A DNA stretch of 64,000 nucleotides from Psammoneis japonica (GCA_008632985.1 QPGO01000182.1:62001-126000), one strand, 5' to 3'; shown: positions 1-58,115, numbered from the stretch's first letter. Notes: generated by a model from the letters alone, not told the origin. Made by a program: numbers and translations.

Positions 1-1590
1 TGGTCACATGCTTGCAACATGACTGGCACATCTGGCGAGCGGCTTCACAAGCCACAGTGGCACTGGCGGGAGACGTCGCAGTTTCCTGGGATCAAGGTTC
101 CTTCTTCAAGGATGGGCTTCATGTCAAAGACACCGGTGAAGTGGACACAGCAGCACCTGCTGAATCCGCCAACACAGTCGGCGCCATTGCCAGCCTTGCA
201 CCACAAAATCTTGATGGGACAAGGGAGATGGTCGTAACGATTCTGCATCTTTTCTTCAAAGCGCTTGCAGTCAAACTGCGAGAGGCTCTTGAAGATCTTG
301 AACGTGAAAAAGCCAACCTCCTTGGCCTTGGGGACGTTGAGGTGACGTTCATTTGGCAAGGTGACTGGAGCAACCTGAGTGGAGTCAAAAGCAACCTGTG
401 ATCTGTTTGTCCCTCCAATGCCACGAACCAAAAAGTCAAAAGCTTCGAGATCCAAGAGATGCTGCTTGGTGATTCCAATGCAAGCACCAAAGTCGAAGTC
501 ACGGCTCATGACTTCGTCCACCGTGCGACCACCGAGCTCGGGCCACTTCTTGACTCCACACAAATGCTCGACGGCTTCATCGAGAGCTTTGTCAGACATG
601 CGCCGACCGCTGGCAGCAATCTGGATGTTCATCTCGTCAATCTTGCGGCAAGTGCTCTTGCGACGGCGAGATTCGCGGCAACTCATGTTGGTCTTTTTCA
701 CGAAACTCACCATTGTCACTTAGACGCTGGCGCTTGTTGGACTCGTTCAAGTTGGCAATCCTTTCGCATCCATCCTGCAGCTGAGTCGACTTGGTGCAAT
801 CAATGCTCTTGGTTCCAATGCTGCCGACGGTGCCATCGCAACGTTCGACAGCCGCCATGTCCACCTTGGCAGGAGCAAGTTGGGAGATGCGCGATGTCAT
901 GGCTTGACAGAGAGCTTTGTCGTTCGGTGGGGTGACACCAAAATGCTTGTAGACGGTCTTGGCAGATTCAACAATTGCGGTGATTTCCGACTTGGGTTTG
1001 TTGCGACGTTGCGTGGTGGGGTCACGCCACTTGAGATCGAGCATGGCAACAACATTGAGAGCGTCAAGATGACTCATGAGTCCAATGCTTGCACGCAGGA
1101 TCTCCAGCCAAGCCAAGAATGGTGGGAGGGTGCGTCTTTCCATCAATTTCCTTGACTCCCTTGATTTCCTGTGGTGGGAAATTGAACAGCTTGGCACACT
1201 TGTTGACACCGGCTTGCGTCAGCTGACCGCAGACGGAGACAGCACGCAGTTTCGCTTTCTCTTCTTTGGTGTGCGGGCGCGGCTTGGTCATGGCAAGTTG
1301 CTGTGTTTTTTGCTTTTGCTGTTGCTGCGGCTGTTGTTTGTGCTGATGGAGTTGTGTTGTGTGTCGGTGTTGATTGTGGCGGCCGCGGCAAAATTCGCTG
1401 CGTTGTCTTTGCATGATGGAGAAGCGCCGTTCAATCCAGTGCGGCGCTCCACCTGCTTGTCACACTTGGACGCAGGCTGCGCATTCCCGTCGGCACAAAA
1501 TCCCCGCCAAAGGGATTTTTGAATCGACCAGCACTGAGGTGCTGTGCGATTGAATGCGCACTGGCCATCTTGTTGGTTGTGGCAGCAATT
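1..1590 (-). pseudogene. Copy 1 of a tandemly repeated gene of unknown function, TpA-hypermutated and frameshifted
   Basis: Overlapping minus-strand ORFs (1064..1414, 637..1209, 45..719) join into one protein (MTKPRPHTKEEKAKLRAVS...GVKKWPELGGRTVDEVMSRDFDF...). Homologous to 2448-3975, 3973-4620 and 10620-11670. Confidence 0.6.
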
Positions 1591-2374
1591 CTACGCGCGG
1601 GTTCCGCTGTTGCGTCTTTCCCGCCAAGAAGTTTTTTGGACCAACCGCGTGGTTGCTCGTGGTTCTGTCACGGAGTCATCAATTCATGGTTGTGTTTGCA
1701 TGGAAGAATTGACAAATCTCATCATTCGTTTTACGCTGTTGGTTGCGAAAGAGTCGTTGTCATGGTCGTCACACATGTCGGGCTTGGTGTGGTTCGTTTT
1801 TACCAAACTTCAGTCTTTTCGGTTTTAGGTGACTGTGCTTTCACCACTTTAGAATGATGTTTCTTTTGACTTTGTGCGCGCATGGCATCTCATTCTTTGT
1901 GCTGTGTGTGTAAAATGCACTCTCCAATGCAAGGTTTCATCAGTGTGGTGGCAGGACTCGACCATCAGTGAGTGCGAGGTGGCGGTTTTGAACTGGCGAT
2001 AAAGTTGGTGCATGATGGACGCCATCGTCGGCACGACTGGTGATGCTGGGAGGACACCTGCCATTGTGCATCTGAGTTCAACTCTGTCGCAACATTGGCC
2101 GGTGTGATGGCCTCTAGAGCAGAGTGGAAGGGCAAGACCAGCCAATCTCACGGCACCTGTTAAAGGAAATGGCAAGCAAAGAATGAACGGCGACTGTCAT
2201 GTGAACGCGAACCTCATTTCACTGATCCTTTGCGCCTTTTCCAAATGACAGGAGCAATTTCATCAAATCAACTGCAGTTCTGCAGCACTTTGCATTCATT
2301 GCAATCCCACAAGAGGACCGCCTTGCCAAGGGGAAAGCCACGAGTTTACTGAGAAATGTTTTTGGCCAACACAA

Positions 2375-3975
2375 ATGATGAACAATCCAGCGCCACACGT
2401 CGGCAATGTGTCTGGCAGTCAAAATGATGGAGCACAGCAATCAAACGTGGTCACGTGCTTGCAACATGGCCAGCATGTCTGGCGAGCAGCTTCACAAGCC
2501 ACAGCAGTGCTGGCGGGAGACGCCGCAGTTTCCTGGGATCAAGGTTCCTTCTTCAAGGATGGGCTTCATGTCAAAGACACCGGGAAGTGGACACAGCAGC
2601 ACCTGCTGAATCCACCAACACAGTTGGTGCCATTGCCAGCCTTGCGCCACAAAATCTTGATGGGACAAGGGAGATGGTCGCAACGATTCTGCATCTTTTC
2701 TTCAAAGTGCTTGCAGTCGAACAGCGACAAGCTCTTGAAGATCTTGAAGGTGAAGAAACCAACTTTCTTGGTGTTGGGGACATTGAGGCAGCATCCGCTT
2801 GGCAAGGTGACTGGAGCAACCTGAGTGGAGTCAAAAGCAACCTGTGATCTGTTTGTCCCTCCAATGCCACGAACCAAAAAGTCAAAAGCTTGAGATCCAA
2901 GAGGTGCTGCTTGGTGATGCCCACGCAAGCACTGAAGTCAAAGTCACGGCTCATGACTTCGTCCATCATGCGACCACCGAGCTCGGGCAATCTGGATGTT
3001 CATCTTGTCAATCTTGCGGCAAGTGCTCTTGCAATGGCGGTGCTCGCAGCAACTCATGTTGGTCTTTTCACGAAACTCACCATTGTCACTTGAATGCCAG
3101 CGCTTGTTGGACTCGTTCAAGTTTGCAGTCCTTTCTTTGTGTGTGTCCTGCAGCTGTGCCAACTTGGTGCAGTCAATGCTCTTGGTTCCGACACCACCAA
3201 CGGTTCCATTGCAACGTTCGACAGCCGCCATGTCGTCTTGGTGGAAGCAAGTTGCAAGATGCATGGCATTGTGGCTTGACGGAGAGCCTTGTCATTTGGA
3301 GGGGATGTGTCAAAATGCTTGCAGACGGCCTTGGCAGATTCAACAATTGCAGTGATTTCCAACTTGGGTTTGTTGCAACGTTGAGTGGTGGGGTCGTGCC
3401 ACTTGAGATCGAGCATGATGACAACGTTCAGAGCATCAAGAGAAGTCCAATGCTTGTGCACAGGATTGCCAACCAAGCCAAGAATGGTGGAAGGGTGTGT
3501 CTTTCCATCAATTTCCTTGATGCCCTTGATTTCCTGTGGTGGGAAATTGAACAGCTTGGCATGCTTGTCGACACCGGCTTGCGTCAATTGACCGCAGACG
3601 GAGACAGCATGCAGTTTTGCTTTCTCTTCTTCAGTGTGCGGGCATGACTTGGTCATGGTGTGGTTGTGCTGCTGTTGCGTTGTTGGTTTTGCCATCGCTG
3701 CCACTGTTGTTTGTGTTGATGGAGTGTTGTTGTGTTGTGTCGGCTTTGATTGTGGCAGCCGCGGCAAAATTCGGCACGTTGTCTTTGCACGATGGAGAAG
3801 AGCCATTCAATCCAGCACGGCGTTCCACCCACTTGTCACACTTGGATGCAGGCTGCGCAGCCCAGCCCCGTCGGTGCAAAATCCCTGCCAAAGGGATTTT
3901 TAAATCAAAATGCGCTGAGGTTCTGTGCAATTGAATGCACACTGGCCATCTTGTTGATTGTGGCAGCAATTCTGT
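2375..3975 (-). pseudogene. Copy 2 of the same tandem unit, with an internal deletion and more CpG loss
   Basis: From 2448 the sequence aligns with position 1 onward (tggtcacgtgcttgcaacat vs tggtcacatgcttgcaacat) and gives the same translated motifs. Confidence 0.65.
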
Positions 3976-4620
3976 GATCTGTTTTTCCCACCAACACCAT
4001 GAACCAAACAGCCAGAAGCTTTGAGATCCAAGATGTGCTGCTTGGTGATTCCAATGCATGAACTGAAGTCAAAGTTGGGACTCACAACTTTGTTGATCAT
4101 GTGACCGCCAAGCTTGGGCCACTTCCTGACCACACAACTGAACTCAACGGCTTTGTTTAGATTGTTGTCAGACATGTGCCAGCTGCCAGCAGCAATCTGG
4201 AAGTTCATGTCATCAATCCCATGGCATTGCAGCAATTCTTGGTCATCTTGGTGCAAAACTCACCATTGCAACTTAGACACTGGCACCAGTTGGACTCACT
4301 CAAGTTTGCAATCTTCTCCTTGTGCCCACCACTCAGCAGAGTTGGCAGAGCACAATCAGTGCTCTTGGATTTGATGCCACCAACAGCTCCAACACTTGAC
4401 AGAGAGGCTGCACAAGTTTTTGTTGGGTCAATTGAGAGATGTGCAAATTCATGGCTTGACAGAGATCTTCATTTGGAGGTGGTGGGTCAAATTTCTTGCA
4501 GACAACCTTGGCGGAATCAACAACAGGGCTGATTTTGGACTTGGGCTTGTTGCTGCATTGAGTTGTGGGGTTGCACCACTTGAGGTCCAGCATGACGACA
4601 ATGAGCAAATGCAGTCATGC
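3973..4620 (-). repeat. Partial, more degraded copy 3 of the tandem unit
   Basis: ctgtgatctgttt...gaacca...agcttt..gagatccaag resembles 396-460. Translated VVRKWPKLGG and VVMLDLKWCNPTTQ. Confidence 0.6.
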
Positions 4621-4655
4621 TGTTGCTGAATGTGTTGTTTGGCAAAGACCATCAC

Positions 4656-5085
4656 TGTCGCCAACACAGAGGGTGGCATGGAATAACCTCACAATTTCTA
4701 GAACCTGTTGTTTGCCGTGCCAACACTTTCTATCGTATCTTGTCAAATTCCTAGAGACTGCGGCACAAATTGCTCACTTTGTCAGAGCCAATGATGTCTC
4801 TCTTTGTTCTGTAGCCTGGAACGGGCAATGGCCCAGCGGCCATTCTATCGATTTTTGCGGCAAGCGCCATGGTCCATGGACGCTCGCACAATCGAAATTG
4901 TTCACTGTAAATGTGATGCAGTTGTGGGCATGAACATGTTTCGCTCGTTGGACCTGAGCGATGCACAACGGAAATTAATCGTTGGGAACAATCAAATGCA
5001 CGCGCAATGCTGACACATGCTGGGACATGTTGAGCATGGAACCATTGAGGGAAATTGATGTTCCGTTAATTTGCCGATTTCAACA
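4656..5085 (+). repeat. Possible 5' LTR/leader of the copia element
   Basis: TG...CA-bounded segment just upstream of gag that keeps TpA and CpG, unlike its flanks. There is no second LTR to confirm it. Confidence 0.35.
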
Positions 5086-6637
5086 TCGTTGGTTGAGCCA
5101 ACTTTTGCTGTTGGCGATCGCGCACCGGGTGCACGATGGAAACACACCACGACCTCACTTTTCTCGTGAAAATCGAAACAAAACACGCACACACGCACAT
5201 CAAACCTCTGACGAGGCCATTTCGACAGCTGCCGCCGTCGCTTTTAATGCAACCCTTACCCGGATCGGGTTCAACGCTGCTGCCAGGGCCTGCATTGTGG
5301 CGCAAGGGGTCAACGATGCTGATTCCTGCCACCAGATTCCACTGTCTGAGGTTGGGGACATGGACAAGGGGTTCATCAAGGACACTGTTGACGACCCAGC
5401 CACACAGTTCCCGCACCTGTCGATCAGGAAGTTCAAGGCATTTCGAGCTTTTCTAGATCATCAGACGACACGTGGGGAACCAAGGCAGGCCCAAGCTTTT
5501 AACGACGCCGCTGTCACTCGTTGGACGGAACGTTTGAGTGAGTTGTCAAATGTCCAGAAGGACAAATCGGATGACGACTCTCCAAGTGCTACACCTCTGA
5601 GTCAAATGCATGACTTCCACAGTTGGGACGAGCTGTTTAGGACCGAGCTCCAGCACCACAGCAACGCTGTTACGGGCGTCCCACTTTTGCACATCATTTG
5701 CGAGACTTCGGATGTCACCGATGAGGTGCACAATGCCACTCACTCCAACGTCGATGAGGACCTCATAGCTGCCACGATCCACCAAGGGACTTCATGCAAA
5801 ACTGACAACAAGCGGGTTTGTGATCTCTTGAAAAAGCTGATCATTGATGGGCCAGGGTGGGCCTTTGTCAAACCATCCAACCACGCAAGGAATGGGCGCG
5901 AGGCTTGTCTTGCCCTGAAGAGGCAGGCGGAAGGCTCTGCTGCGACTGCTGCTCACAAGAACTGCGCGTGCGCTCAAATCGCTGCCACAAAACATGCTGG
6001 ACGCGGTCGTCACATGTTCGACCAGTGTGTCACACGTCACCAGAAGGCACACAACGACCTCCTCGACTTGGGAGAGCCGGTGGCAGAGACCAAGAAGGTC
6101 TTGGATTTCCTGAAGGGAATCACGGACCCAAGGTTGGAGACCGGGAAGAGCGTCGTGGATGGCGACAAGGCAAAACTCTCCAACTTTGAGTTGTGTCAAC
6201 AGTGCATGAAGACACTGGTCAAAAACTTGAAAAATCGGGCGTCGGAACACCGCCAAATCATGGCATTGGAACGAGACAATGCCAGGAACAGGAACCAAGG
6301 CCGTGGAAAAGGCAAGGGCAAAGACAAGCCTCGGATTGGGGCAGGCCACTGTCCCAAGGAAGAGTGGGATGACCTTGACCAAGAGGAGAAGGCCGAAGTC
6401 AACAAGCTCCGAGAGAAGAAGAAGCGTGAGAAGGAACGCCGAGCTGCTGCTCTGAAGACGGAGGAAACCAAAGAACCTTCAAGGAAACTTTCTAAGGTGA
6501 CAATCACTGATCCCAAGGACGTTGAAAAGGATGAGACCCCAAAGGAAAAAGGGGGTGCCAATGCTGGGAATCAGTTCGGACGCGGAGCGCACAAGCCTGC
6601 GGCTGCAACTGCTGTTGAAGCCGAGAAAAAGGAATGA
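4982..6637 (+). CDS. Copia gag-like ORF, hypermutated; true start probably near 5200
   Basis: Motifs GVPLLHII, DNKRVCDLLK, NGREACLALK and KKVLDFLKGITD match diatom copia gag with Y->C/H changes. No Tyr seen in 551 aa. Confidence 0.8.
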   Translation: MGTIKCTRNADTCWDMLSMEPLREIDVPLICRFQHRWLSQLLLLAIAHRVHDGNTPRPHFSRENRNKTRTHAHQTSDEAISTAAAVAFNATLTRIGFNAAARACIVAQGVNDADSCHQIPLSEVGDMDKGFIKDTVDDPATQFPHLSIRKFKAFRAFLDHQTTRGEPRQAQAFNDAAVTRWTERLSELSNVQKDKSDDDSPSATPLSQMHDFHSWDELFRTELQHHSNAVTGVPLLHIICETSDVTDEVHNATHSNVDEDLIAATIHQGTSCKTDNKRVCDLLKKLIIDGPGWAFVKPSNHARNGREACLALKRQAEGSAATAAHKNCACAQIAATKHAGRGRHMFDQCVTRHQKAHNDLLDLGEPVAETKKVLDFLKGITDPRLETGKSVVDGDKAKLSNFELCQQCMKTLVKNLKNRASEHRQIMALERDNARNRNQGRGKGKGKDKPRIGAGHCPKEEWDDLDQEEKAEVNKLREKKKREKERRAAALKTEETKEPSRKLSKVTITDPKDVEKDETPKEKGGANAGNQFGRGAHKPAAATAVEAEKKE

Positions 6638-6736
6638 AAGATTGCGCCGACGAGCAAGGACGACAACTTTGTAGAAGTTAAAATAGAATCTTGAATTGAT
6701 TCTCACGTCACTGCTTCTGTCGGCACCAACAGAAAT

Positions 6737-9700
6737 GTGTCTGCACCTTTCGCCAAATCCTTAAGGCGCACTGCCTTGGTCGACACCGATGCAAGCAATG
6801 GCTCCTTTTTCAACGAGCTGGACACGCACACTGACACTTGCGTTGCAGGATCTAGCTGTGTTCCCTTCTCAGATCCCTCCTGCACTGTTGCGGCACATCT
6901 GCACTCAAGCGAATGTGACCCGACAAGGAACATCCCGATGCAGACAGTTGCCACTGTCTGGGTTGACCCGAGTTCCAGCCAGCCATGTCTCCTCATCTTG
7001 AATGAGGCTTTGCACTTTGGGGACAGAATGAAACATTCGCTGATGTGTCCCAATCAGCTCCGTGCTGACGGCTTGACGGTGCATGATGTGCCGAAACAGT
7101 TTGACAGCTCCAGCACTCATTCAATCACCTTCCTGGACTCTAAGGTCCGGATCCCATTGCGACTTGATGGGGTTGTTTCTGCTTTCGAAACAAGCAAACC
7201 GACAGAAGATGACCTTGAAAACTTGCCTGGGCTTGAATTAACCTCGCCCCTTGAATGGGAACCAAGCTCCAACGAGTTCACACAAAAGGAAAACTCAATC
7301 AAGACTGCACCTCAAAGGGTGGCAGGGCTTGGCCATTCCCCAGGGCAGAGCCCAACAAGGGAATGCAGGGACAACAACATGGTGCATTGCATTGCGTCCG
7401 TTAGATCCTACAATCAAGCTTTCAACAGCAACACCATAGCAGCTGGGGATGATGACCTTGAACTCCACAAGGCTCTTGTTTCTGAGGTGAGTGCACAGCA
7501 CCTTGATGCAAAAGGAGATGGATTGCATGACGGGTGCGACATCAATGTTCACGAGGATCATGAGGAGAGACTGCGCGTCTGCGCACTCTCCACAACTGAG
7601 AGCAGGGGCACTCTCACCCCTGAGATTCTGTCTAGAAGATGGGGCATTGGTCTCACTGCCTCCAAGAACACTCTGAAGGTTGCTGCCCAAGCTGGAGTGC
7701 GGAACGTCCATGTGCCCTCAGAAAGGAAGGTGCGGAAAAAGGCACCCTGGCTCAAGTTCCCGAGCATCAAGGACAGGTTCTATGTGGACCAAATGTTCTC
7801 GACTGTGAAATCTATACACGGGGACGTGGGTGGTTCCACATTTACGAATGGTTGTGGATGCGACTGCTTCCATCCATGGAAATCAAAGGGAGATCAGCCC
7901 AATGCAACTGTGTCGTTTGTGCATGACGTGGGTGTCCCGATGGAAATCGTGTGGGATGGGGCTTCTGAGCTCACCGATGGACGCACGAAGGAAATTTGTG
8001 AAGAGTGTCGAATCAAACAAGGGGTCACTGTCCCTCACAGTCCATGGCAGAACTTGGCCAAAGCCTCCATTCGCGAGCTAAAGAAGAAAGTGCGGATTGC
8101 AACAAGGCGTGCGAACGCACCAAAACGCTGCTGGTCCTACTGTGCCAAGTGGGCCACGGCCATCAGGAGGCTCACAGCCTCTGAGCATCCAGAAATGGAT
8201 GGGAAAGTCCCCGAAGAGGACATTGCGGGTTCAACGCCAGACGTCTCAGCTCACGCCCTCTTTGACTGGCACCAGCCGGTGCACTTTATGATGCCTCAGG
8301 CAAAATTTCCCTTTGAAAGGAAGTGCATCGGGTGCTGGTCAGGTGTCACAGAAAACTGGACAGACAACATGGCATTTGCAATCCCACCTGAATCAGGTGC
8401 ACCTCTCATTTGGAAGGATGTGTGGGCTCTGCCTGAGGATGACCTAAAGACTGACGCGATTCGGCAAAAGATTGAGCAACTCGATGCCAGTCTTGAACTT
8501 AGGCTGGGGGACGGTAAGGAAGGGAATGACAAGTTCCCAGAACCACCCGAAGACCTGTTTGGCAACGAAGACGCCAATGCAGAGCCGTTTGAAGAAGATG
8601 CAACTCATCCAGCAGCAGACGATTTCATGCCGGAGGCAATGGATGAGCATCTAATGGCAGAACTCAGGCTCCCACGAGGTGGTGAGCTACAACACGCAAA
8701 AGTCATTGCTGGGGAGCGCGATGCAGACGGGAATCCGACAGGGAAGTGGCACGAAAAGCCTGTCCTTGATTCGAGGCTTTACGAGGTAGAGTTCCCGGAC
8801 AGATCTGCCGATGCGTTCACGGCTAATTTGATTGCCAAGAACATCCACTCCCAGGTTGACGGAGAAGGACGATCTTGCCAGATTGTCAAAGAGATTGCAG
8901 GTCACCAAAGTGACACGCGTGCAGTGCACAGGGATGATGGTTTCTTTGTCACAAAGAGCGGCACGCGCAGACCCCGCCGAATGACGATTGGCTGGGACTT
9001 GCAATTCGAGTGGAAAGATGGAAGCACTAGTTGGCTCCCTTTGTCGGAAGCTGAGGAGTCCTTTCCCGTCCAAGTCACGGAATGCGCTGTCGCAAATGAG
9101 ACAGCGAGCAAGCCAGCATTTAACTGGTGGGTTCGAGACGTGTTGCGTCGTCGAGCCAGGATGGTCATGAAAGTCAAGACCAGGCACTGGAAGCGCACCC
9201 ACAAATTCGGCATTGAATTGCCAAAATCCGCAGAGCAAGCCTTGACACTGGACGAACAATCCGGGCTCGACCCATGGGGAAAGGCAATTGAGAAGGAAAT
9301 GCGCAATGTAATGCCAGCCTTTGAATTTGTCGATGACGACCAGATGCCGGTCGGATGCAAGGAGATCAAATGCCACATGGCATTTGATGTCAAGTCGGAC
9401 TTGACTGGGAAAGCGCGACACGTGGCCGGAGGCCACATGACCGACCCACCAAAAGAATCGACTCATTCTAGTGTGGTCTCATGCGACAGCGTGAGGACAG
9501 CTCTTATGATGGCAGCTCTGAATGACTTGGAAGTCATGTGTGCCGACATTCAGAACGCTTGTCTGAATGCACCAACAAAGGAACGTTGTCACACGATTGC
9601 TGGCCTGGAATTTGGCAAGCAGAATGTCGGTCGACCCATTAAGATTGTTGGAGCTCTGTGGACCAAAGAGTTCTGGCGCTGCTTTTAGGGAACATGTGGC

Positions 9701-10195
9701 AGCGGCGCTAAGGCCAGCAGGTTTCACTTCTAGCAAGGGCGACCCCGACGCATGGATGCACAAGAACACTGAGCCGGATGGCTTCAAGCACTGGGAACAT
9801 GTGCTTGCACATGCAGACGACTTGCCAGTTGTCTCGCACGAACCCCAGAAGTTCATGGATTGTGTGGCTTTGAGACATGTGCTAAAAGAGGGAAGCATCA
9901 AGGAACCGGAAGAGCACCTTGGTGCCGAGGTGAAAAAGTTCCAACTATCTGACTCGGACGGCAAGACACGTTGGGCCCTTTCATCTGATTTGCATGTCAA
10001 ACGGGCCATTGCCGACATTGAGTTTGAACTCGGCCATGCAGGCCGGGGACTCAAGAAGAGAGTCACCATGCCGTTGAGCTCGGGGCATTGCCCTGAGCTT
10101 GACGCTACGCAGCTGGACACCCGGAGGGCAACTTGCTTCCAGGGACTCATTGGCGTTTTGCGTTGGATGGTGGAAGTGGGGCGCATTGATGTTTT
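6737..10195 (+). pseudogene. Copia pol (protease, integrase, reverse transcriptase), frameshift near 9655
   Basis: Protease ELDTHTDTCVAG. Integrase FYVDQMF / VWDGASE / PWQNLAKASIRELK. RT FDVKSDLTGKARHVAGGH, ADIQNACLNAP, KSSGAAFR and EHVLAHADDL (YVDD position). Confidence 0.9.
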
Positions 10196-33850: not shown

Positions 33851-33859
33851 TTGTCACAT

Positions 33860-35987: not shown

Positions 35988-36000
35988 CTCGCCTCCCTAA
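35988..36000 (-). other. Polypurine tract
   Basis: Minus strand reads ttagggaggcgag immediately before the 3' LTR TGCA. Confidence 0.8.
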
Positions 36001-41172: not shown

Positions 41173-41174
41173 AA

Positions 41175-43536: not shown

Positions 43537-44538
43537 CACCGAAGACACGGGCCCAGTGTCTTGGAGCACGGCTCAAACGCTCACGTGCGTGTCGAGGATG
43601 CGCCAAGTCATTCGGGATTTGCTGCACATGGACGTTCTCTAGCCGAGTTTCAGGGTGTGAAGAACACCGAAAACACACCCAAGCTTGCTGCTTGGAATCG
43701 ACTTTTGGATACAGATTTGGGTGCGTGCAATGGAGGGCCGAGTCGCACATTGAAGGAGATCCTCAAAGAGCGCGTCATTACGCCCTTCTCAGAGTCGAGT
43801 AGTAGTCCGTCATATGGGGCAGCTTACTCTGCTATCCTCTTTGGTCCACCGGGTACTGCCAAGACGACGATTTGTGAATCTCTTGCCGAGAGGATGGGTT
43901 GGGACTTTCTTGTCATTTACACTGCTGCATTTTTGGCAGATGGCCTATCAAACGTTGCAGCGAGGATTCGGTATGTGTTTGAACGCCTCCAATCCTTGGA
44001 GCGATGCATCATTTTGTTTGACGAGATAGAAGAGTTTTGTCTTGACCGCGAAACTCCAGGATTGGGAATGGAGAGTCGCATGTTGACAACTGCCATGCTC
44101 ACAGCAATCAATGATTTGAGACGAGCCAAGAGGAGCATCTTCTTCTTGGCGACAAGTCGACTATGAGCATTCGACTCAGCAATCACTCGACCAGGTCGTT
44201 TTGACATGCAGCTATTCGTAGGTACTCCCAATATGGAAGCGCGGTGCATTCAACTTCGACAAAAGCTTGGGTCAGTCCCTGTTAGCGAGAAGCGTAAGAA
44301 AGAAGCCGAAAAAGCCTACAAATCCTTCCTCGAGACCGTTTGGACGGAAGATGCAATGTTTATGAAAAATTTGGAGGGCATGCAGTTTGCAAAAGCATGT
44401 GCCAATATTGTCGCATCGCGAATGGAGCTAACTGATGAAGAAATGGGAGCAATGCTAGAGACTCAGGCTGCAGTCATGACAGCAAGAGGCGCCGTTCGTG
44501 ATGAATACCTTGCCTCGATGGAAATGTCAGGACTGTAG
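43537..44538 (+). pseudogene. Duplicated 3' part of the AAA+ ATPase gene with a premature TGA (44164-44166); homology continues to about 44840
   Basis: Aligns with 25504-26499 and downstream sequence. CGA->TGA relative to the original. Confidence 0.88.
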
Positions 44539-45251
44539 TCGATTGTGTTTCTCTACCTACTGAACTAATTTTCAATTCGCTTGGGACCACCAAGGTCCGA
44601 CACCAATGCGCCTTTGACGTGTTCATTGCCAATTCATTGGCGCTCAATTTCGTCGGAATTTCATTATGTAGTCATGCTTCTACTGCACTGTAAAGCAGTC
44701 ACCGCTTATTACGCTTTTCGCACTCTGGGTGTTAGTTCCATGCTCTGACTCTGCCACTCTGTCGATTTCACCGTTCGTGCTCATGACGCCTCAGTGTTCT
44801 GCGATGATTTTTTGTTCTGGCACCCGCGCAGACGAAACATTCGGTCTATCTCCATCATATACCATACATACACAGATTTGGTCTATCGGTGACCCTACAT
44901 CTTGAGAGGTAATAGACTTGGTGGTCTTGGTCCTACCTTAGAGCATGCAAACAAGGATGCAAAATGACTCGAGTCTTGCATCCCTTGCACTCCTCGGGGG
45001 GATCTCCCGCAGGTCTAAAAACGAAAAATGTCCACAGCTTTGTATCTAGAGTAGAAGCAGTACATACCTTCGTCCAAGTACTTCTAGGAGGAGTGAGTCG
45101 AGTAGAGGGGGGGNGGGGGGGGGGCAGACATGGAGACAGCGCAACGGTACGGTGACAACTGCAACTTCGCACGTTCGCCCTTCATCCATTCATTCATACA
45201 CATCACAAAAAAAGAAACAAGTAAAACAATAAAAAGTAACAGAGATACTGT

Positions 45252-45935
45252 ATGCAGTTGAACGTCCAGGACAGCCCTTTCCTATCCCAAATCACCATGG
45301 AGGAAGCTATTGACGCCTTGATAGCCCTAAAGAACAAGTACGACGACCCGAGCATTCAGGATGCGTTGCAACGGCTGACTGTGGATCAAGGAAGTCAAGA
45401 TGTTGAAGAATGGGCCAAAGAACTGTACCTTGCCAAGCGGGATCGTGATGATCCAAAGTCCGCGTCTCTTAATATGGATCGTAAAGCGATTCTCAATCTC
45501 CTTTACGAGTTGGTGAACCTGTGGAACAAGGTGCGTAAAGATCTGGGAGACGACGCTGCCGACGAGTTTGAAGACAAGATTCTCGAAATTTTCCAAGCGA
45601 GGAGAATCGACCGTATTGTTGGGTTTGGGCTGCCAATGGATCGGGCACAGTCATTGTATGCAATGAAAATTCCAACGTCGTCCAAGTATGGTATGCACTG
45701 GTTCAGCGAGTTTCACTTTGACGCGACTTCGCCCAACTGTAATTTCGATTACTCCCAGGAACTGACGCAAGAAGAACAAGAAGAATGGAGTGCCTTGCTA
45801 TCTGATTATCCTGGTTTCCCCACAATGAACAAGAGGCTTTATCAGATTTTGTTCAGCAAAAAGATGGGATTGAGGCGTCGTCACCCAAATACATTCGGGC
45901 GTTGGTGCAAGCCCCAGGCAGCCGAGATTGTGTAG
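45252..45935 (+). CDS. Hypothetical protein (about 212-227 aa)
   Basis: Intact ORF with a conserved inverted paralog at 41175-41872. Confidence 0.65.
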   Translation: MQLNVQDSPFLSQITMEEAIDALIALKNKYDDPSIQDALQRLTVDQGSQDVEEWAKELYLAKRDRDDPKSASLNMDRKAILNLLYELVNLWNKVRKDLGDDAADEFEDKILEIFQARRIDRIVGFGLPMDRAQSLYAMKIPTSSKYGMHWFSEFHFDATSPNCNFDYSQELTQEEQEEWSALLSDYPGFPTMNKRLYQILFSKKMGLRRRHPNTFGRWCKPQAAEIV

Positions 45936-46498
45936 ATATTGGAACAGCGGAAGGCAGTACAGGGGTCACCGATCTAGTGTTCAGTAGTTGTTTGTTAGTA
46001 ATGCTATGTTATGTTAGAACCCTTTTTCAGACAATGTTAAGTAGTCAAGATATAGGGTGAACGTCTCTTGAAGCTTAAAATGTAATGCATTGAGTGAACC
46101 ACCGACCGCTGACTGATCCAAGTGAACAGGAAAGCTCTCTGTCGATTACAAGTCCATGGCAAATCTCTCGCGAGGCGCAGAATGCACGATTCGCACAATG
46201 CACGATTCGCGGCTGGAGGAATGAAAAAAATCCTTGCACAACCCACACCATGAGAATTCTTTTCAATGGCATGACCGAGTCCTACCAAAGTTTGATAAAG
46301 TTAGAGTCGGAACGATTGAATCAAAACTGACTGAAGTGGCATTGTCTCCACAAAGCGATTTGCAAAGCCTTCCGCTGCCCCTTTCTAGGAAATTTCACAA
46401 GATTGCATGACAATAGATACGAAAATGGGACGCCATAGTAACACAGAAATTAAAAGATATGCTACTGGAATACAGACTACTACATTGACACACTTTCT

Positions 46499-47649
46499 TT
46501 ATTCTTCCACATCCTCACGAGCCCGGTCCAGAGCCGAGGCAATGTCATCGGGCAAGCTGGGGTCGAGCCACGAGGGTTCCGGCAAGCCCTTTTCCTTTAG
46601 GAATTCACAATTAAACATTTTGCCCTGATAACGAGATGCCGAATCACACAAAATTGTGGCCAGCGTGTGTCCCGGCCCGAGTTCATTGGCGAGCCGTTCG
46701 GCTCCCGCCACATTAATGCCCGACGACATGCCCAGGGCAAGACCTTCCTTGGTCAAGAGTTCAAAACACGCATTGAGTGCGGTCGTGTCGTCAATCTCGT
46801 AATTGTAATCGGGAGTAAAGCCTTCCAAATTGGCCGTGACGCGGCCTTGTCCAATTCCTTCGGTAATGGAATTGCCTTCCGACTTGAGTTCGCCGTCCTT
46901 GTAATAACGATGCAATGCTGCTCCACAGGGATCGGTCAATCCCACCTTGACGTCGGGATGGAATTCACGAAAATACATGGCACATCCCGCAATAGTTCCG
47001 CCCGTCCCAATGGCGCAGGAAAAGGCATTGAGTTCAGGAAGTTGTGCCATGATTTCGGGCGCCGTCGTTTCGTAATGAGCGCGCCGATTGTCGACATTGT
47101 CAAACTAATGTTGGAAAACGAGTCAGTTACGAATCAGTACCGCGAGCACTTTTTCCACCAATCTCAACAAACCGAAATGTTGCTTACCTGATTGGCCCAG
47201 ACACCGCCCGGAATTTCACTCGCCAGTCGTCCCGACAGTTTGATGTAGTTGTTGGCATGGCGATAGGGTTTGGCGTCCACTTCAATCAACGTCGCACCTG
47301 CCTGACGCAGCGTGTCTTTTTTCTCTTGAGTCTGTGTACGAGGAATCACAATGATGCTCTTGTATCCCTTGGCATTCGCCACGTACGACAATCCAATTCC
47401 GGTATTGCCTGCCGTCCCCTCGACAATGGTTCCACCGGGCTTGAGCTTGCCATCACGCTCCAATCCCTCCACCAAACTGCGAGCCGCGCGGTCCTTGACG
47501 GATCCGCCTGGATTGAGAAACTCAGCCTTGCCGTAAATCTTGCAACCCGTCCGTTCCGACGGTCCACGCAACAAAATGAGCGGCGTGTTTCCAATGGCAT
47601 CAACAAAGCCATCATAGACGGCAGGAACGAAGGATTTGGATTTTGACAT
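46499..47649 (-). CDS. cysK: Cysteine synthase (PLP-dependent O-acetylserine sulfhydrylase family); intron about 47105-47187, possible extra 5' exon
   Basis: IGNTPLI, KAEFLNPGGSVKDRAA, EGTAGNTGIG, GTGGTIAG, TEGIGQG, GMSSGIN. Confidence 0.92.
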
Positions 47650-48894
47650 ATGGTGACGCTTCTGATGAAGAAAAAAAAGAAGCATGAAAGTGAGTGGTCG
47701 TAAGAGTTTCTCCGTTTCTCCGAACACATCATGTGAAAAAACCGAAGCATCGTGACTTCTGACGCTTTGAAACATCTGCTTCCTTCCGGCGAGGACTACT
47801 CTCTACGACTAGGGCCTACTAGGAAAGGACGAAAGTAGCGCTTACCGTCAACTGTGATCTCTTGTCAATGAAGCAGAATGCGACTGGGTTAGCTGGCACT
47901 GAGGTGATGTTGATTGTGTGATGCAAACCACTGTAATCATACATCGCAGAAAGATCTGATGGATCGGGCGACAAAGATCGTGCGTGCGTTCCTTGCTCGT
48001 TTTGCGGCGCAGATTTCGCCATCGATGTTTTCTGCACTCGTAGCTCGAAATCAATCTCAATGTGTCTATAAATAATGCTTCATGAATAAAGATATAATAA
48101 TCGCGCTAAATTTATTGATAAAACAGGTATGGCAGTGGCGGCTATGGTGACAGACAGAAGGCCATGAGCAAGTTGTGAGAAAGGACATGCCTTGGCCAGG
48201 AACTACCGCACGGTAGAGTAGAGAGTAGAAAGTTGGAAGTGGAAAGTGCAAAGGGAAGTCGATGTTCATGGAGGAGCGAGCTCAAAATCACATGTGCTGC
48301 AGGTGATGAGCTGGTGCACACCATCCTGCGCTGGCTGCATTTTTGCTTCAACCCAGTTGCCCCACAACGTGATGATGCTCCCTGTGTTTTTGTGGCACAA
48401 AAGCGGCAGTTTCCATGCATGTGTTCAAAGGGTGCCACCATTGGCAGCTTGCCACCTTGCTCTTTTTTCAATGAAAAATGGCAAAATGGGCCAGGACCCT
48501 CTCATTCTCTCTGGAGCATCTGTGGCAAGCAAAACAAAAAAATTGAACTCTTTGGCTCTGATGGTGGCTGGAGGTGGCAACTGTGAATGACAAAAGTCAG
48601 GCAGATTTGTGAAACATGAACGGAGATGATTGGCTTGCGACAGACAGAATTGAGCAAGTGACAACAAAGACTCAAGATGAAGATTTGGCATTGCAGGCCC
48701 GTCTCTCCTGGATGGAACAACGCGCATCACCTGGAAAGCAATGTCGCGCATCTGTCATGTCTGGTGTGAAGAGTGGGGCATGATGGGTGCCCCTGCAATC
48801 CAAAGAGTGCTCCTGAAAACCTGACACATGACACAACATGCTCTCTCATCTCATTTCTCTGACTCCCCGCTTGCCAAAAAGGTTGTCACGTGCC

Positions 48895-49756
48895 ATGGAC
48901 TTCAACCAGTGCAATGCCCACCCGAGGGATGCCCACATTGATTTTAATGCAGAGGCTCATGAGCCTTTCATTGATGGGTTGTCTAAAAGCATGACAAGCA
49001 CAACAACCCTGCTGGGAAATTTCTTCCAAAGTTTGATGCCGATGCCATCCTGGCAAAGTGCTGTCACCGATGGCAGCAAAATCTCTACAAGAAGCCTGGG
49101 TGCCATGGAAAGACAAAAGAGGAGACAAAGGAAATGTGGAGAGCCAACAAAGAAGATGCGGCTTCACAGGGCACACATCTCCACACAGCCAGTGAGCCCT
49201 GCTGTCCAGGCAAGGATGTCGATTGTGACCAGGAAACAATTGATTGGAGACAATTCCTGTCATTTCAAGAGGAAAATCAGTTGTCACCCTTTCGAACAGA
49301 GATGCGTCTTTGGTCAAGTGATCACTGGCTGGCAGGGACAATTGACATGGCAGTCATGAATGCAGATGGAGCACTTTCCATTTGTGACTGGAAAAGGACC
49401 AAGGGGAAAGCATCTTCCAGAATGAGAGGTCATGGGGTCGCCATGGCTTCGGTCCTCTCTCCAATCTTCCCGACAACCACTTTTGCAGGTGCAGGATGCA
49501 GTTGAACTTGCACCGGGAACTGCTGGAGAGCTGCTGTGGCCATGAAGTCAGCTCCATGCACGTCATGAGCTTTCATCCAAAAGCTGGAACCTGTGAATCA
49601 ATGGCCACAGATCGCATGGAAACTCATGCCAGGGCCCTTCTGGATCTCCAGCATCTTGATGTTGAGCCTGGCAACGTTCAGCAGTTAGCCTCAAATGTCA
49701 GTGCTCTGGCAATCAGTGATGGCAAACAAGCCATGAGGGAAGAACTTGAAAATTAA
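48895..49756 (+). pseudogene. PD-(D/E)XK nuclease-family gene, frameshifted and TpA-hypermutated
   Basis: NAHPRDAHIDF..TSTTT, GTHLH, PFRTEMRLW..LAGTIDM..LSICDWKR, QLNLHRELLESCCG..MHVMSFHP. Confidence 0.75.
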
Positions 49757-50349
49757 GTCGGCTGCACGGACTGTGGACTGTGGGCCCAAGAAGACAGTCC
49801 CTGACCGCACCGCACGATTGGCTGCTTTCCTTCTGAGCTTTTGTGTTGTGCTGCAACACGCATGTGAAATGCAGAGAGACAGGGAAATGATGACCAGTTT
49901 GTCATTCCACAAACCAGTTGGCAAAAGATCATTGTGCTCATGTTGCACGGAGCGTGAAAGATTGCATCAATCAGCGCAAGGTCCAAATCGTGTTGGTTTT
50001 TGCAGCGCAGATTTTTACGAGGTCATGTGGCCGCAAGGCTGCGCGGCAGGGTGCGAGGCATTTCTTTCAAGCACCTGGCACAGCATTTGGCAGGCTCCGG
50101 AAGCTCTCTGTTGACCACAGCCAGAGGAGCATTTTAGTGGAACTCGCAGAATGCTAAAATTTGAAATTGGATGATTGTCTGGCTGGAACAATGTTCAAGG
50201 AACCCTGAACTGCCCACACCCAAAGTTCTGCATCTGTGATTTTGCAAACCCATTTGTCATTTTCTGCCATTCTTGAGCATTTGACAGCTCACATTTGTCA
50301 GATTTGAATGTCATTGATGTTTTCAGCCATGAAGAAAAACAAGGGCTCC

Positions 50350-53300
50350 AGACATCCCACCATTGTGCATGAAGCCACAAATGGCCCCAACTCTGAAGAA
50401 TGGATCAAGGCAGTCAAAACTGGCAAATGCCCAGTGTGAATGTTTCTCACCCAGGTGATGGGCATTTTGGCTCAAGAGACTTCTGAGTGGGGCTCCACTG
50501 TGAGGAAGTGTGGGGCATCATGTTGTGTTCATGGCAGCCTTCAGAAACATGGGGTGGACCACATTGAAGAACACACAATTGTTTTGTGCAGTTGTCAATG
50601 CAGTCACTCACTGTCTCCTCACCACTGTGCTCAAGAGCCAGGGAGGTTGGGTGGCCATTCATGTGCACTGCCTGCACTCAGCCTCCACAATGGTTTGCAC
50701 TGGCAGGAAAACTGAGCAAAGTTTTGGAGCTTTGAAAGTTCCATGGTCCCGAGCAATCACCAAAATGTTGCCGGTCCCATCAAAATGTGGTTGGACACCA
50801 TCCAACATTGACCCCAGCCCTCACCTCAAAAAGGTGGCATGTGATGGGTGTTGTTCATGTTGACAACAATGCAGCCATCCAAGAGAATCTTCTCACAAGT
50901 TTCCTGAGCCCCCCACAGATTCAAACCTGCAGAGCTTCCAAGTGCAAATTTTGGCCACCATGTGTTCTTTTGAGCTGTGTGATGAAGAAGAAGTCTGAAA
51001 CTTTCTTTGGGGTCAAGATTGACAGACTGTCCAATGGCTGATTTTTGCCAACTCAACCTGGTCTCATTGAAAATGTTCTGTGTGCCTCCAAAATGGAAAG
51101 CTCTGCAAGCAACCAAGCACACATCCCAGCTCTTCCTGAGCCTGTTGTGTGCGGGCAAAAACAGAAGGCATTTGAAAAACTCTGAGATTGTCAATCTGTT
51201 GTTGGAGTGCTGGGCACACCTTGCAATCAATGGTTGGAGACAAACCATGTTGTGCACACAACATGTTTTGCATGCACTGCATGCATCTCATGCTGCTGCC
51301 ATTGAGCTCATTCTTCATCATCTTGCATCACCACTTTTGACCAAAGCCTTGTTTTTTTTTAAACCAGCTTCCAAGAACAAGAGCCAAGTTGGCTGATGCA
51401 CCAACTCTGATTTCACACCAGGCGAGACTCTTTGGCATCAAAGATGGGCAAGAGACTCAGTGTCAGCAGCCAGGTCCCCATGTGGGCCATCATCTCATTC
51501 TTTGTTGTGAGGGTGATGGCACTCAATTGTCAGGGGTGTCCAAGCTGGTGGGAGCCTCTGCAGTCTCTGATCACTCTCTCCTCTTTTTGGGAGGGGTGGA
51601 GCACCATGGTGTGACACTTTCTTGTCCTGTGCTGTGACCTGACCCCCCTTTTGGGAAATTCTCAAGGAAATCAATGCTCTTATTTTTGGGCAGTCAGATG
51701 GTCACAACTTCCTCTTTTGCTCCTGCTGTGTGCCATGTGCACTCCAAAGCATTCACTCTTGACAGCTGTTGAACACCGACGCATCATCATCTCCCAATTT
51801 CTTGCCTCTGCCTGGCACATCTGCTGCTGTGCATGAGGACAGTGTTGCCTGCCTCAAATTCACCTGTGTGCTGCAAAATTTTCTCTGAGAGAACCAAGCA
51901 CACTGGTGTGTGCATGTTCTGCATCACTGGCCTCATGCTGAAAAGAGGAGAATTTTGGAGATTCGCGGTGCACCCAAAAAACCCACCCTCTGCCAGCGTC
52001 CCACCTCCAAGCAACTGGCCAATCAGTTTGAGAAGGGGCTGCAGCCTGTTGAAATGTTCCACGCTGTTTGCAAGGCTCTTGTGGGGTGGTGAACACTCTC
52101 TCAAGGGATGAGAGGGAGAGTCACCACTCAACTGTGTGTGCGGGGTCATGCTTCAGCCAAAACTCTGACCCCCTCCTCCCACTTTGTTTTGTGCCTGAGC
52201 TCTGACTTGAATGACTTTTTTCTCTGCATCAAACAATTGCAACCATCATGACTTTTAGACTCTGTGTTTGTCAAGGTTCGCCACCACCTTTTGCACTGTT
52301 GCTGTTGTCCAACCTCTCAGAGGTCTCCAGCTCAAAGCAGACTGTTGTCACGAGTGCATGATGATGTGCAGCATGCATGCAGACAAAAGGTTGTTTTTGT
52401 CACGCCCTTTGTGACATTTAAAGGCTGCAACACGTCGCCGTGACACATTGGCTCTTGTCAGCAGCTGTGTGTTGCACTTCTCCCCATGTGTCGCGCGTCC
52501 ATGCGGCTCTTTGCTAACGTGCACTGACACTGCACGGTTTTGGCGGAACAGTGTGGGTACGTGCGAAGGAACACACAGAACTGCACAGAGTTTTACGCGT
52601 TCGACAGTGATCAACGTTGCTGCAGACAACTCCCACTCAGGGTTTCGAACCCCTGGCCTCCTGCCCAATGGTTGCGATGAACCACTCCGCTGTGAATTCA
52701 CAATGCAGCATGCACGCAGACAAAAGGTTGTTTTTGTCACGCCCTTTGTGACATTTAAAGGCTGTGACACGTCGCCGTGATGCATTGACTCTCACCAGTG
52801 GCTGTGTGTTGCAGATGAGGCAGGTGCGACAACACGACACGGCACTCCTGCCATTGCATGTGCCTTCTCCTTGCCAATGCCAACAGACTCAAAACCACAG
52901 AGACTGCAAACAAAAACTGGCCACCATGTGTTCTTTTGAGCTGTGTCATGAAGGAGAAGCCTGTGACTTCCTTTGGGGTCAAGATCAACAAACTGCACAG
53001 TGGCTGATTTTTGTCAGCTCAACCTGGACTCATTGAAAAATTCTGAGTGCCATTTCCAAGATGAAAAGCTCTGTGCAAGCAATGGAGCACACCACACCCC
53101 AGCTCTTCTCAAGCCTGTTGTGTGTGGACAAAACCAGGTTGCCATTTGAAGAACCCTGAGATGGTTGATCTGTTGTTTGAGCACACCAGCAGCATGCCTT
53201 GCAGCCAACAGTTTGGCAGTCAGGTTGTGCGTGATGTTTTGCACGCACCACAAGCATCTCATGCTGCTGCCATTGAGCTCATTCTTCACAATGATTGTCA

Positions 53301-54297
53301 CAAGAAAAGATTGCCTCTGACCAAAGCCTCACATTTTTGAAGCCAGCAGCTTCCAGCAACCAAGTTGGCGCTGCTGTTGTGCTGGCTCTGTTCATTTTGC
53401 AGAACTCTTTGGTGCCAAAGATGGGCAAGAGACTCAATGTCACCAGCCAAGTTCCCATGTTGGCCATCATCATTTTTCTTTGTTGTGATGGTGATGGTGC
53501 CTGATCATTGGGGGTGTCCAAACTGGTGGGAGCCTGCAATCTCCAGTCACTCTCTCCACTTTGGGGATGGAGCATGCCACACTTTCTCATGCCCCGTGCA
53601 TGACCTGAGCCCTGTTTGGGAAATTGTCAAGGAAGCCAGTGCTTGTGACTTTGGTGGCAGCCTGACAATGGTGTCACAGGCAAAAGCTGTTTCACAGCCA
53701 AAACACTCCAGAAGACCTTTGCAATCTCAGTGCTGGTGCAGGCACCCCCTGTTGACCCTGCCAAGAACTTGTTGCCTGCATCTGCTGTGCATCATGAGCG
53801 AGTGAGGAAAGTGTGCTGCCTGCCCAAAACACTTGCCCATGCCTCAAAAACACTTGCCCGTGCACCAAAGTTTCATCTTCCCAAGCCAAGCATGTTGATG
53901 TGCTCCACATTGGTGGCTCTTTTGTGTCCCCAACCAAGTGTGGGGAGGGTCGTGAGATTTGGAGATTGGCTGATGACACCCAGCACAGCACCTCTGTGTC
54001 AGCACTGCTGCCAAGCATCAACTGGCCTGCCAGTTTGAGAGAAAGGTGCAAGAAGGGGCTGCCCGGCAAAAATGTTCCGTGCTGTTTGCAAGGCACTTGT
54101 GGGTTGATGAACATCTTCTCCACCGGTCTCCCACAGCGCTCTGATCTCTGATTTGAAACTCTCTTTTTTTTCTTTGCATCAAACAAAAATTGCAACTGTC
54201 ACAATTTTTAGACTCTCTGTTAGTCAAGGTTCACAACTCCCTTTCACGTCGTTGCTGTTGTCCAAACCCTCAGAGGTGTAGACTCCAGCTCAAAGCA
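50350..54297 (+). mobile_element. Two tandem, highly degraded copia-like RT remnants (about 50350-52340 and 52900-54297) with a spacer containing an about 85-bp direct repeat
   Basis: VMGVVHVDN (YVDD position) and FFGVKIDRLSNG..TQPGLIENVL. 50950-52340 aligns with 52915-54298. 52369-52455 is repeated at 52705-52792. Confidence 0.6.
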
Positions 54298-54545
54298 GAG
54301 TGTCACGAGTGGCAAGACAAGGCCGACATCGCACGCACGGACGCGAGAAAAGCACTCCACAGCAAGCGCGGCGCGCGCGAGCGGAGAGCCGCCAAGACAC
54401 CGGCACTACGGCGACCGAAACCGAAACGCACACGCGAGGGCGACCAGACTCGCGGACTCAACACACACACTCAATTCATTCACGTCTCGTTCTCGGTGCT
54501 CTGCTGTTGCATCCGTCCCAAACATACAATCAATCCATTCAAACA

Positions 54546-58100: not shown

Positions 58101-58115
58101 TTGCTGTAACAAGTC

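Follow-up and report, generated by a model that had tools for sequence, protein, structure and literature searches.

Three TA-depleted blocks in a chromosome of the diatom Psammoneis japonica are probably repeat relics hypermutated in place at TpA

We analysed a stretch of 64,000 nucleotides from the diatom Psammoneis japonica (GCA_008632985.1, QPGO01000182.1:62001-126000; hereafter "the window", with positions counted from its first letter), in which three long blocks are nearly devoid of the dinucleotide TA. These blocks probably (at roughly 80%) represent the remains of transposons and other repeats on a nuclear chromosome of the diatom, hypermutated at TpA where they stand, by a process of the type described in the rhizarian alga Bigelowiella natans (Mettrop et al., bioRxiv 10.64898/2026.01.13.699255). 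In this process, a fast and local mutation at the DNA level would convert nearly every 5′-TA-3′ through A>G, yielding TG when the top strand is hit and CA when the bottom strand is, acting after insertion, in place, and on each strand independently, at a rate of ~100–500x background substitution in one dated case, and halting within a few hundred bases of neighbouring genes. Decay of CpG to TpG/CpA, the expected footprint of cytosine methylation, would run alongside at a slower pace, and elements would be killed without stop codons, every Tyr codon changing to His or Cys, including that of the YxDD motif of reverse transcriptase (RT).

Observed/expected (obs/exp) ratios of TA, scored in 64 one-kb windows, were 0.00–0.21 in 30 of them and 0.28–0.92 in the remaining 34. 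The 30 low-TA windows formed three contiguous runs (1–13000, 27001–39000, and 49001–54000), in which TG and CA obs/exp were mostly 1.4–2.3 (minima of 1.12 for TG and 1.15 for CA); CpG obs/exp in one-kb windows went down to 0.08–0.3 in parts of the blocks. When the deepest parts of the blocks (29,802 bp) were pooled and compared with the gene blocks (28,203 bp), TA numbered 164 (5.5 per kb) in the former and 1,067 (37.8 per kb) in the latter; CG was found at 27.9 versus 56.9, CA at 105.1 versus 68.6, and TG at 106.6 versus 73.7 per kb (211.7 versus 142.3 for CA and TG together). The losses of TA (−32.3 per kb) and CG (−29.1 per kb), 61.4 in total, approximately match the gains of CA (+36.4) and TG (+32.9), 69.3 in total. 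Most other dinucleotides shifted by <3 per kb and none by >13 per kb; the densities of AA (78.9 per kb in deep blocks, 76.2 in gene blocks), AT, and TT were essentially unchanged, and G+C and base composition were nearly equal between the two pools.

Block edges, located with 200-bp windows, fall at about 13,200–13,600, 26,800, 39,800, 48,200–48,400, and 54,200–54,800, with transitions spanning 200–600 bp. An earlier note on this DNA had described three TA-poor, TG/CA-rich blocks separated by gene blocks with normal TA, a description confirmed here; its coordinates hold to within a few hundred bases, except that it had included in block 2 an island of normal TA (39,800–40,400), next to which lies a TA-free stretch (40,400–40,800). 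In the edge zones 26,800–27,400 and 54,200–54,800, TA obs/exp was 0.0–0.44 and CpG was normal or high (7–20 per 200 bp), which may represent a TpA process reaching a few hundred bases past the CpG-depleted core, or younger targets. The depleted segments are the following.

1–13400, unstranded: TA-depleted block 1, which runs off the left edge of the window and has a gradual right edge (13,200–13,600); TA obs/exp of 0.02–0.21 per kb, with 0–3 TA per 200 bp at 12,000–13,000
26800–39800, unstranded: TA-depleted block 2, delimited by composition in one-kb and 200-bp windows
40400–40800, unstranded: older TA-free DNA to the right of a young long terminal repeat (LTR) element, with 0–2 TA per 200 bp
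48200–54200, unstranded: TA-depleted block 3, with partial depletion to ~54,800, where CpG is normal; contigs of the public run X1 (see below) have the same sequence, at a depth of ~36–72

The direction of the change can be read from block 1, which contains a degraded Ty1/copia element and, upstream of its pol region, a long open reading frame (ORF).

6695–10331, + strand: hypermutated Ty1/copia (RVT_2) polyprotein relic, recognised by its homologues, by an alignment of Tyr columns, and by TA obs/exp
4979–6634, + strand: 552-aa ORF without tyrosine (Tyr 0%), with protein-atlas matches of 0.95–0.96 to unnamed clusters

The ORF at 6695–9685 represents the first two thirds of a Ty1/copia polyprotein, and the relic continues to 10,331; 248 homologues were found (best identity 53%; typical length 1,370–1,400 aa with RVT_2), and a named relative comes from Fragilaria. 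Tyr accounts for 0.4% of the residues in the copia ORF and 0% in three other block ORFs, as compared to 2.0–2.4% in three flanking genes and at least 2.5% in all 120 copia homologues listed (median 3.5%). In an alignment with 33 homologues, the 17 columns with Tyr in at least 70% of the sequences presented His (7), Cys (5), Tyr (3), Phe (1), and Trp (1) in the window, while 12 homologues tested alike as controls kept Tyr in 27–30 of 30 columns. In the RT region (9654–10199), all nine Tyr of P0001 were replaced by His (7) or Cys (2), the catalytic Tyr of YxDD included. As TAY>CAY encodes His and TAY>TGY encodes Cys, these replacements are the predicted outcome of TA loss to CA and TG. The relic presented 78% identity to the conserved columns (89–96% in the controls), and its conserved Arg residues were changed to Cys (3), Trp (2), and His (1), which is a signature of CpG decay. 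TA obs/exp was 0.18 in the relic and 0.46–0.87 (median 0.67) in 80 related metagenome loci, across which the lowest 1-kb window was 0.32; with the Tyr kept by homologues, this argues against a family that was itself TA-free, an alternative that had been raised for this DNA. The 552-aa ORF may be a gag-like ORF of the copia element; the sole atlas cluster with recorded taxa is mostly diatom, which is a lead only.

The timing of the change is given by a young LTR element in block 2, one LTR of which was spared, and by a solo LTR of the same family.

35621–35989, + strand: hypermutated 5′ LTR of the young LTR element, with 4 TA remaining
39881–40248, + strand: spared 3′ LTR of the young LTR element, with 29 TA and TA obs/exp of 0.64–0.84
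34780–35090, − strand: older solo LTR of the same family, TA-free (2 TA)

This LTR family, with three copies in the window, includes a 369-bp direct repeat that flanks a 3.9-kb internal region. The 5′ and 3′ LTRs differ by 31 mismatches, all of which are transitions (31/31, with 0 transversions). Of 29 TA sites in the 3′ LTR, 25 (86%) correspond to TG (13) or CA (12) in the 5′ LTR; the remaining mismatches are five CpG-type changes and one other C/T change, the latter among 268 positions outside TA/CG. Because the two LTRs of one insertion differ, the changes in the 5′ LTR arose after integration. The per-base TpA rate in this LTR is ~500x background as a point estimate resting on a single background change, with a lower bound of ~100x. 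Along the element, TA obs/exp was 0.06–0.25 from the 5′ LTR to ~38,500, 0.19–0.39 at 38,600–39,800, and 0.64–0.84 in the 3′ LTR, i.e., the TpA rate shifts at least 25-fold within ~1 kb. By eye, the element may be bordered by a 4-bp target-site duplication (CTTG), on which no weight was put because it hinges on the chosen position of the LTR end.

Copies of a repeat that were altered separately carry different outcomes at the same sites. At 19 TA sites of the 3′ LTR aligned with the solo LTR, the latter presented TG/CA (14), TA (1), or another sequence (4), and the 5′ LTR and the solo LTR had both mutated at 10 sites, with different outcomes at 5 of them. Double differences with CA in one copy and TG in the other numbered 6, 19, 20, and 12 in four pairs of repeat copies within the blocks and 0 in two control pairs of duplicates from normal DNA. 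Only an ancestral TA accounts for such CA/TG discordance with one step per copy. Two further repeats belong here.

1–1592 and 2448–3973, + strand: tandem duplication with 84–91% identity between copies and TG-versus-CA differences (6 and 19)
52013–53014, unstranded: copy of a very high-copy repeat in block 3, with an X1 depth of 38,000–48,000 as compared to 55–60 elsewhere

The high-copy repeat contains 110-bp direct repeats (52367–52476 and 52704–52813) and a tRNA-like stretch at ~52620–52690, in which ARAGORN identified no tRNA; Rfam and tRNA scans of the window were likewise empty. Many versions of this repeat have TA where the window copy has TG or CA (e.g., at 52513 and 52522). Together, the loss of Tyr from the copia relic, the LTR pair, and the CA/TG discordance support the proposal of the earlier note that a DNA-level A:T→G:C mutator acted on repeats.

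TG and CA occur equally often as outcomes and are interleaved (z of −0.4 to +1.0 in runs tests on the blocks; 17 runs versus 13.5 expected among the LTR outcomes); the two strands were struck independently, without strand-coordinated tracts. Survival of TA relative to the gene blocks depended on the flanking bases, amounting to 1–2% in RTAY, 5–21% in RTAR and YTAY, and 20–70% in YTAR (0.70 for TTAA). A strand-symmetric, additive model with four parameters, in which the rate of each adenine is set by its own 3′ neighbour alone, fits the 16 contexts with R2 of 0.96 and gives rates of 2.05 for T, 1.71 for C, 0.68 for G, and 0.05 for A. Trinucleotide gains present the same bias (per kb, TGC +13.6 and TGT +10.3 versus TGA +4.7 and TGG +4.3, with about half of the CGN loss allowed for). 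These contexts point to 5′-TAY-3′ on the A-bearing strand as the target, or equally 5′-RTA-3′ on the T-bearing strand, and indicate a strong preference in the order TAY > TAG >> TAA.

Decay of CpG co-occurs with the TpA process and is slower and separable from it, the TpA process being independent of CpG loss. TA and CpG obs/exp are correlated in the blocks (Spearman 0.61 over 60 windows of 500 bp), and CpG obs/exp was >0.7 in 8 of the 45 500-bp windows with TA obs/exp <0.15; the 25 TA-type versus 5 CpG-type changes in the young LTR indicate that the TpA process is the faster. The footprint of 5-methylcytosine (5mC) deamination is present as CpG depletion, as the Arg changes in copia, and as the five CpG-type LTR changes. 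This decay accounts for roughly half the gain in TG/CA and leaves the loss of TA wholly unexplained. The statement of the earlier note that fungal repeat-induced point mutation (RIP) and 5mC deamination cannot explain the loss of TA is therefore upheld, since TA was destroyed and CA/TG gained, while the coupling to methyl-CpG deamination that it had suggested is not supported, given the low-TA windows that keep CpG and the excess of TA-type LTR changes.

Explanations in which no DNA-level mutator acted were considered along with the main one. A miscall or polishing error arising from a modified base at TpA in the blocks finds some encouragement in nanopore data, where modified bases yield systematic purine/purine and pyrimidine/pyrimidine miscalls, and in the library type of the public run X1, which is not on record; its short-read nature is judged from depth and contig behaviour. 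X1 contains 0.89 of the sampled words of the window, and its contigs, compared over 45,500–60,500, reproduce the TA-free sequence with few differences at a k-mer depth of ~55–60 (contig word depth of ~36–72 across block 3 versus ~55–66 in the flanking genes). Four listed X1 contigs differed from block 3 by 12 bases over 4,560 bp, whereas miscalling of the TA sites should have produced ~170 differences. Among the 40 listed of 116 X1-versus-window differences, a sample too small for a spectrum, 15 lie within block 3; four of these are of the TA versus TG/CA type, which is at most a hint of de novo change, and in three X1 has TA where the window has TG or CA, two of the three lying within the high-copy repeat. 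X1 also differs from the window elsewhere (one contig of 2,667 bp, for example, shows 10 substitutions and 21 gap letters), and its contigs are therefore not a mere re-filing of the assembly. In addition, a strand-specific miscall should give mixed TA/CG calls at many sites, whereas CG is depleted, and the Tyr changes in copia stand among many other residue changes, as in an old relic. A base-calling artefact is unlikely, with a probability that we would put at very little, and this check on reads, which had been proposed in the earlier note, thus speaks against it. Selection on composition, in which families evolved TA avoidance (e.g., to escape a TA-reading nuclease or a TA-targeting integration), would be in line with the mild under-representation of TA across the window (0.4–0.9), which is nothing specific, and is barely conceivable: a working polyprotein cannot do without tyrosine and the catalytic Tyr of YxDD is His, relatives have normal TA and Tyr, and sister LTRs differ at 25 TA sites. 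For copia and the LTR element, the loss of the YxDD Tyr and the difference between sister LTRs rule it out. Editing at the RNA level (ADAR-like A>I on double-stranded RNA from transposon transcripts) or of cDNA, fixed by retrotransposition, has in its favour that copia and LTR elements replicate via RNA and that A>G with a 5′ U preference is ADAR-like (Discussion of bioRxiv 10.64898/2026.01.13.699255). ADAR action would involve one strand before integration, whereas here the strands are equal and interleaved (13 TG to 12 CA in one LTR, with runs tests near 0), the LTRs of a single insertion differ, so that the changes are post-integration, and tandem-repeat and unclassified DNA is affected as well. 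ADARs prefer a 3′ G, in contrast with the order T, C > G >> A found here; we regard such editing as scarcely credible.

Among DNA-level mutators, the earlier note had put forward error-prone synthesis of the polymerase eta type (A>G at WA) that is brought in when methyl-CpG deamination is repaired, which would account for the covariation of CpG and TA loss (Spearman 0.61). It would be expected to give A>G together with A>T and A>C at both TA and AA, whereas AA is not depleted and the LTR pair has no transversion among 31 mismatches and a sole change outside TA/CpG in 268 positions; a 40-fold contrast between TAT and TAA is also unlike the WA motif, and the low-TA windows that retain CpG do not fit a recruitment through CpG. 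This explanation is thus very improbable. A polarity like that of RIP, with TG/CA>TA in the 3′ LTR, was excluded by the discordant TG/CA outcomes and by the protein outgroups. Attack on thymine would leave the same footprint: the T in 5′-RTA-3′ may be modified, e.g., to 5-hydroxymethyluracil (5hmU) by a dioxygenase of the TET/JBP type as a silencing mark, and then occasionally read or repaired as C, which gives T>C, the complement of A>G. Since TpA is self-complementary, all results fit such T-directed chemistry with a 5′ purine preference equally well, and 5hmU stands in for a large part of the thymine of dinoflagellates, reportedly with a preference for TpA/TpC. However, 5hmU pairs mainly with A, so that near-saturation would need very long times or a dedicated repair bias; 5hmU has, to our knowledge, not been reported from diatom DNA, and the literature matches for 5hmU with diatoms, among those listed, concern dinoflagellates by title. 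The authors of the B. natans study favour adenine deamination, as a hypothesis only (bioRxiv 10.64898/2026.01.13.699255). On this balance, a thymine-directed chemistry is unlikely, though not negligible.

The chemistry that we tentatively prefer, at somewhat less than even odds, is that a TadA/ADAT2-like deaminase is recruited to silenced repeats and converts adenine in their DNA to hypoxanthine. It is the simplest fit because the 5′ T is strict, only transitions occur, and rates add up per strand; A>I chemistry of the TadA/ADAT2-ADAT3 kind would yield exactly A:T>G:C. In the natural TadA/ADAT substrate, the edited A34 always follows a U, and bacterial TadA reads U-A-C, which resembles TAY. 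The natural enzymes act on RNA loops, and most eukaryotic ADAT substrates have a purine after A34, so that the +1 preference found here is opposite to theirs. No deaminase domain was found by Pfam in 283 ORFs of the window, with spliced genes of the gene blocks and shorter ORFs outside the scan. A broader and more doubtful proposal is that diatoms and chlorarachniophytes share an ancient "inverse RIP", in which a TAY adenine deaminase of the TadA/ADAT2 lineage would be guided by chromatin or small RNA to silenced transposons and integrated viruses.

The hypermutation seen here is no longer undescribed, as it had been called in the earlier note: Mettrop et al. (bioRxiv 10.64898/2026.01.13.699255) report TpA hypermutation arising de novo in B. 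natans mutation-accumulation lines. In an integrated nucleocytoplasmic large DNA virus (NCLDV) and a virophage region, 230 of 231 mutations were A>G/T>C, all of these at TpA, with a rate of ~6e-7 per site per generation as compared to a background of 3.5e-10 (~1,700-fold), a contrast compatible with our LTR estimate. That preprint further describes 1-kb clusters depleted of TpA and enriched in CpA and TpG, as well as an enrichment of RT and DDE domains in TpA-depleted coding sequences, and its authors propose an ADAT2-like adenine deaminase. The two cases share changes that are almost only A>G/T>C (here 31 of 31 LTR mismatches are transitions, and TA loss is balanced by TG and CA gain), restriction to TpA (25 of 31 LTR mismatches are TA-type, AA, AT, and TT are unchanged, and Tyr becomes His or Cys), and confinement to regions of foreign or repeat origin at a rate far above the rest, although most of the DNA in blocks 2 and 3 is of unassigned origin. 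They differ in the host, a diatom on another supergroup branch than the rhizarian B. natans; in the targets, i.e., a copia relic, an LTR element, and repeats rather than viral inserts; in the depletion, which is near saturation here (TA obs/exp 0.00–0.2) versus 0.45 in the NCLDV region; in the co-occurring CpG decay; and in that a footprint is seen here and de novo events there. The words "context" and "trinucleotide" and any mention of diatoms are absent from the main text of the preprint, supplements aside, and the +1 pyrimidine preference is resolved here. No report of TpA hypermutation in diatoms was found in literature searches. What is new here is thus the diatom lineage, the targets, and the saturation, together with the +1 preference, the strand independence, and the in-place timing from the LTR pair.

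The process resembles fungal RIP in being local, dense, transition-only, and dinucleotide-specific, in inactivating repeats in place, and in its sharp contrast with neighbouring genes. However, RIP changes C>T at CpA, which makes TpA and destroys CpA/TpG, whereas here TpA was destroyed and CpA/TpG made, with the polarity fixed by 33 outgroup proteins; RIP creates stop codons, and the present process creates none; and most of block 3 is single-copy at ≥88% likeness by depth, so that a present-day duplication is not needed to retain the mark. Deamination of 5mC shares the TpG/CpA products and is present in the same blocks, but it cannot remove TpA and is slower here and separable. AID/APOBEC and ADAR in animals offer the concept of deaminase hypermutation of foreign or repeated nucleic acid at a short motif; APOBEC gives C>T in strand-coordinated clusters and ADAR acts on one strand of RNA, unlike the interleaved A>G on both DNA strands, with a 3′ pyrimidine, seen here.

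Several points weigh against reading the blocks as repeats hypermutated by a defence process. We infer the targeting, the defence function, and the chemistry from the footprint that the process would have left in the sequence, and the same holds for the proposed link of a targeted defence to silent chromatin. No family of transposable elements (TEs) could be assigned to most of blocks 2 and 3, and the assignment to repeats is carried by one copia element, one LTR family, one tandem duplication, and one high-copy repeat. The 3′ LTR (39,881–40,248) was spared despite TA-free DNA on both sides, where a simple silent-domain model predicts otherwise; by analogy, patchy episodic tracts as in the B. 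natans lines, or a local boundary, might be behind this sparing. The context model takes the composition of gene blocks as a proxy for the ancestral composition of the repeats. X1 may have been a source for assembly or polishing, its technological independence being judged from k-mer depth and contigs. Lastly, none of the 80 related metagenome copia loci was hypermutated, in a sample biased to intact, well-matching copies; generality in diatoms is thus conjectural, and the metagenome sample says little on how far the process is spread.

A change of TA to TG or CA cannot turn a sense codon into a stop; TAA and TAG vanish, and TGA is the sole stop left in TA-free DNA. Because TA loss removes TAA and TAG and makes no stops, long open frames persist on both strands: 116 ORFs of at least 110 aa were found on both strands over ~33 kb of blocks, and ~15 ORFs of at least 200 aa in the blocks, a number near a rough chance estimate for TA-free DNA. 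Stop-to-stop ORFs of at least 60 aa in the blocks were scanned with Pfam (266 of 324, the omitted 58 being block 1 ORFs of 60–109 aa), and no transposon or nuclease domain was found in the 266. Copia, which the earlier note had named as affected content, was confirmed by its homologues, as were a tandem duplication and an LTR family by their copies, while gypsy, Tc1/mariner, and a nuclease gene, also named, were not confirmed; these may still be present, since protein signals fade under the mutation itself. In TA-free islands, gene predictors are likely to report too many genes, and diatom annotations may under-call TEs and over-call genes in hypermutated islands, since Pfam signals are lost (0 TE domains in 266 ORFs) while long open frames remain.

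Until the 2026 preprint, no eukaryote was known with local, high-rate A:T mutation at a defined dinucleotide. The TpA process is, on the present reading, no curiosity of one rhizarian alga and may be ancestral or recurrent in a huge, ecologically dominant group. The footprint adds constraints that are absent from the published text (the process hits both strands independently, strongly prefers a +1 pyrimidine, is separable from CpG decay, acts on retrotransposons, and has rate boundaries of ~1 kb within one element), and it directs attention to relatives amenable to laboratory work, where candidate deaminases or enzymes that modify thymine could be knocked out. If the "inverse RIP" proposal were true, eukaryotes would have in this process a third major mutational genome defence, next to RIP in fungi and APOBEC in animals; the process would be widespread across the SAR clade (stramenopiles, alveolates, and Rhizaria) and hence among a large fraction of marine primary producers, and a natural adenine deaminase acting in a double-stranded DNA context would be of interest to base editing.

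The normal DNA next to the blocks presented several further features. To the right of block 1, an ORF with a TIR domain (13214–13756) is followed by a 1,359-aa ORF (13895–17974) with a helicase region of the DEAD/ResIII/Schlafen type and a C-terminal TIR domain, and, on the opposite strand, by an ORF (18614–19732) matching glycosyltransferase group 1 and the Pfam entry "GT4 in conflict systems"; by these domains, 13214–19732 looks like an immune- or conflict-type gene cluster adjoining a hypermutated island. Two segmental duplications lie in normal DNA, one direct (25499–26584 and 43532–44620, 92.8%), which overlaps an AAA-ATPase ORF, and one inverted (41175–41876 and 45225–45926, 94.7%), the start of which overlaps an HSP70 fragment; both presented ordinary mismatch spectra, with transition to transversion counts of 45:26 and 15:22. 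The HSP70 fragment (40918–41295, − strand) has one conserved Tyr position, occupied in the window by Asp, and is uninformative as a test on host-derived sequence. The named relatives of a flanking ArfGAP gene come exclusively from diatoms (≤59% identity), and the window contains a single N (an assembly gap) at 45114. A second run, X2 (labelled "DNA?"), covers gene regions only, with very uneven depth and RNA-like behaviour; within block 3 it gave no cover except for depth on the high-copy repeat (52013–53014), and no inference on silence was drawn from this. X2 skips 83 b at 47104–47188 (CT..AC) and 168 b at 54821–54990 (GT..AG), which are probably introns of the genes flanking block 3.

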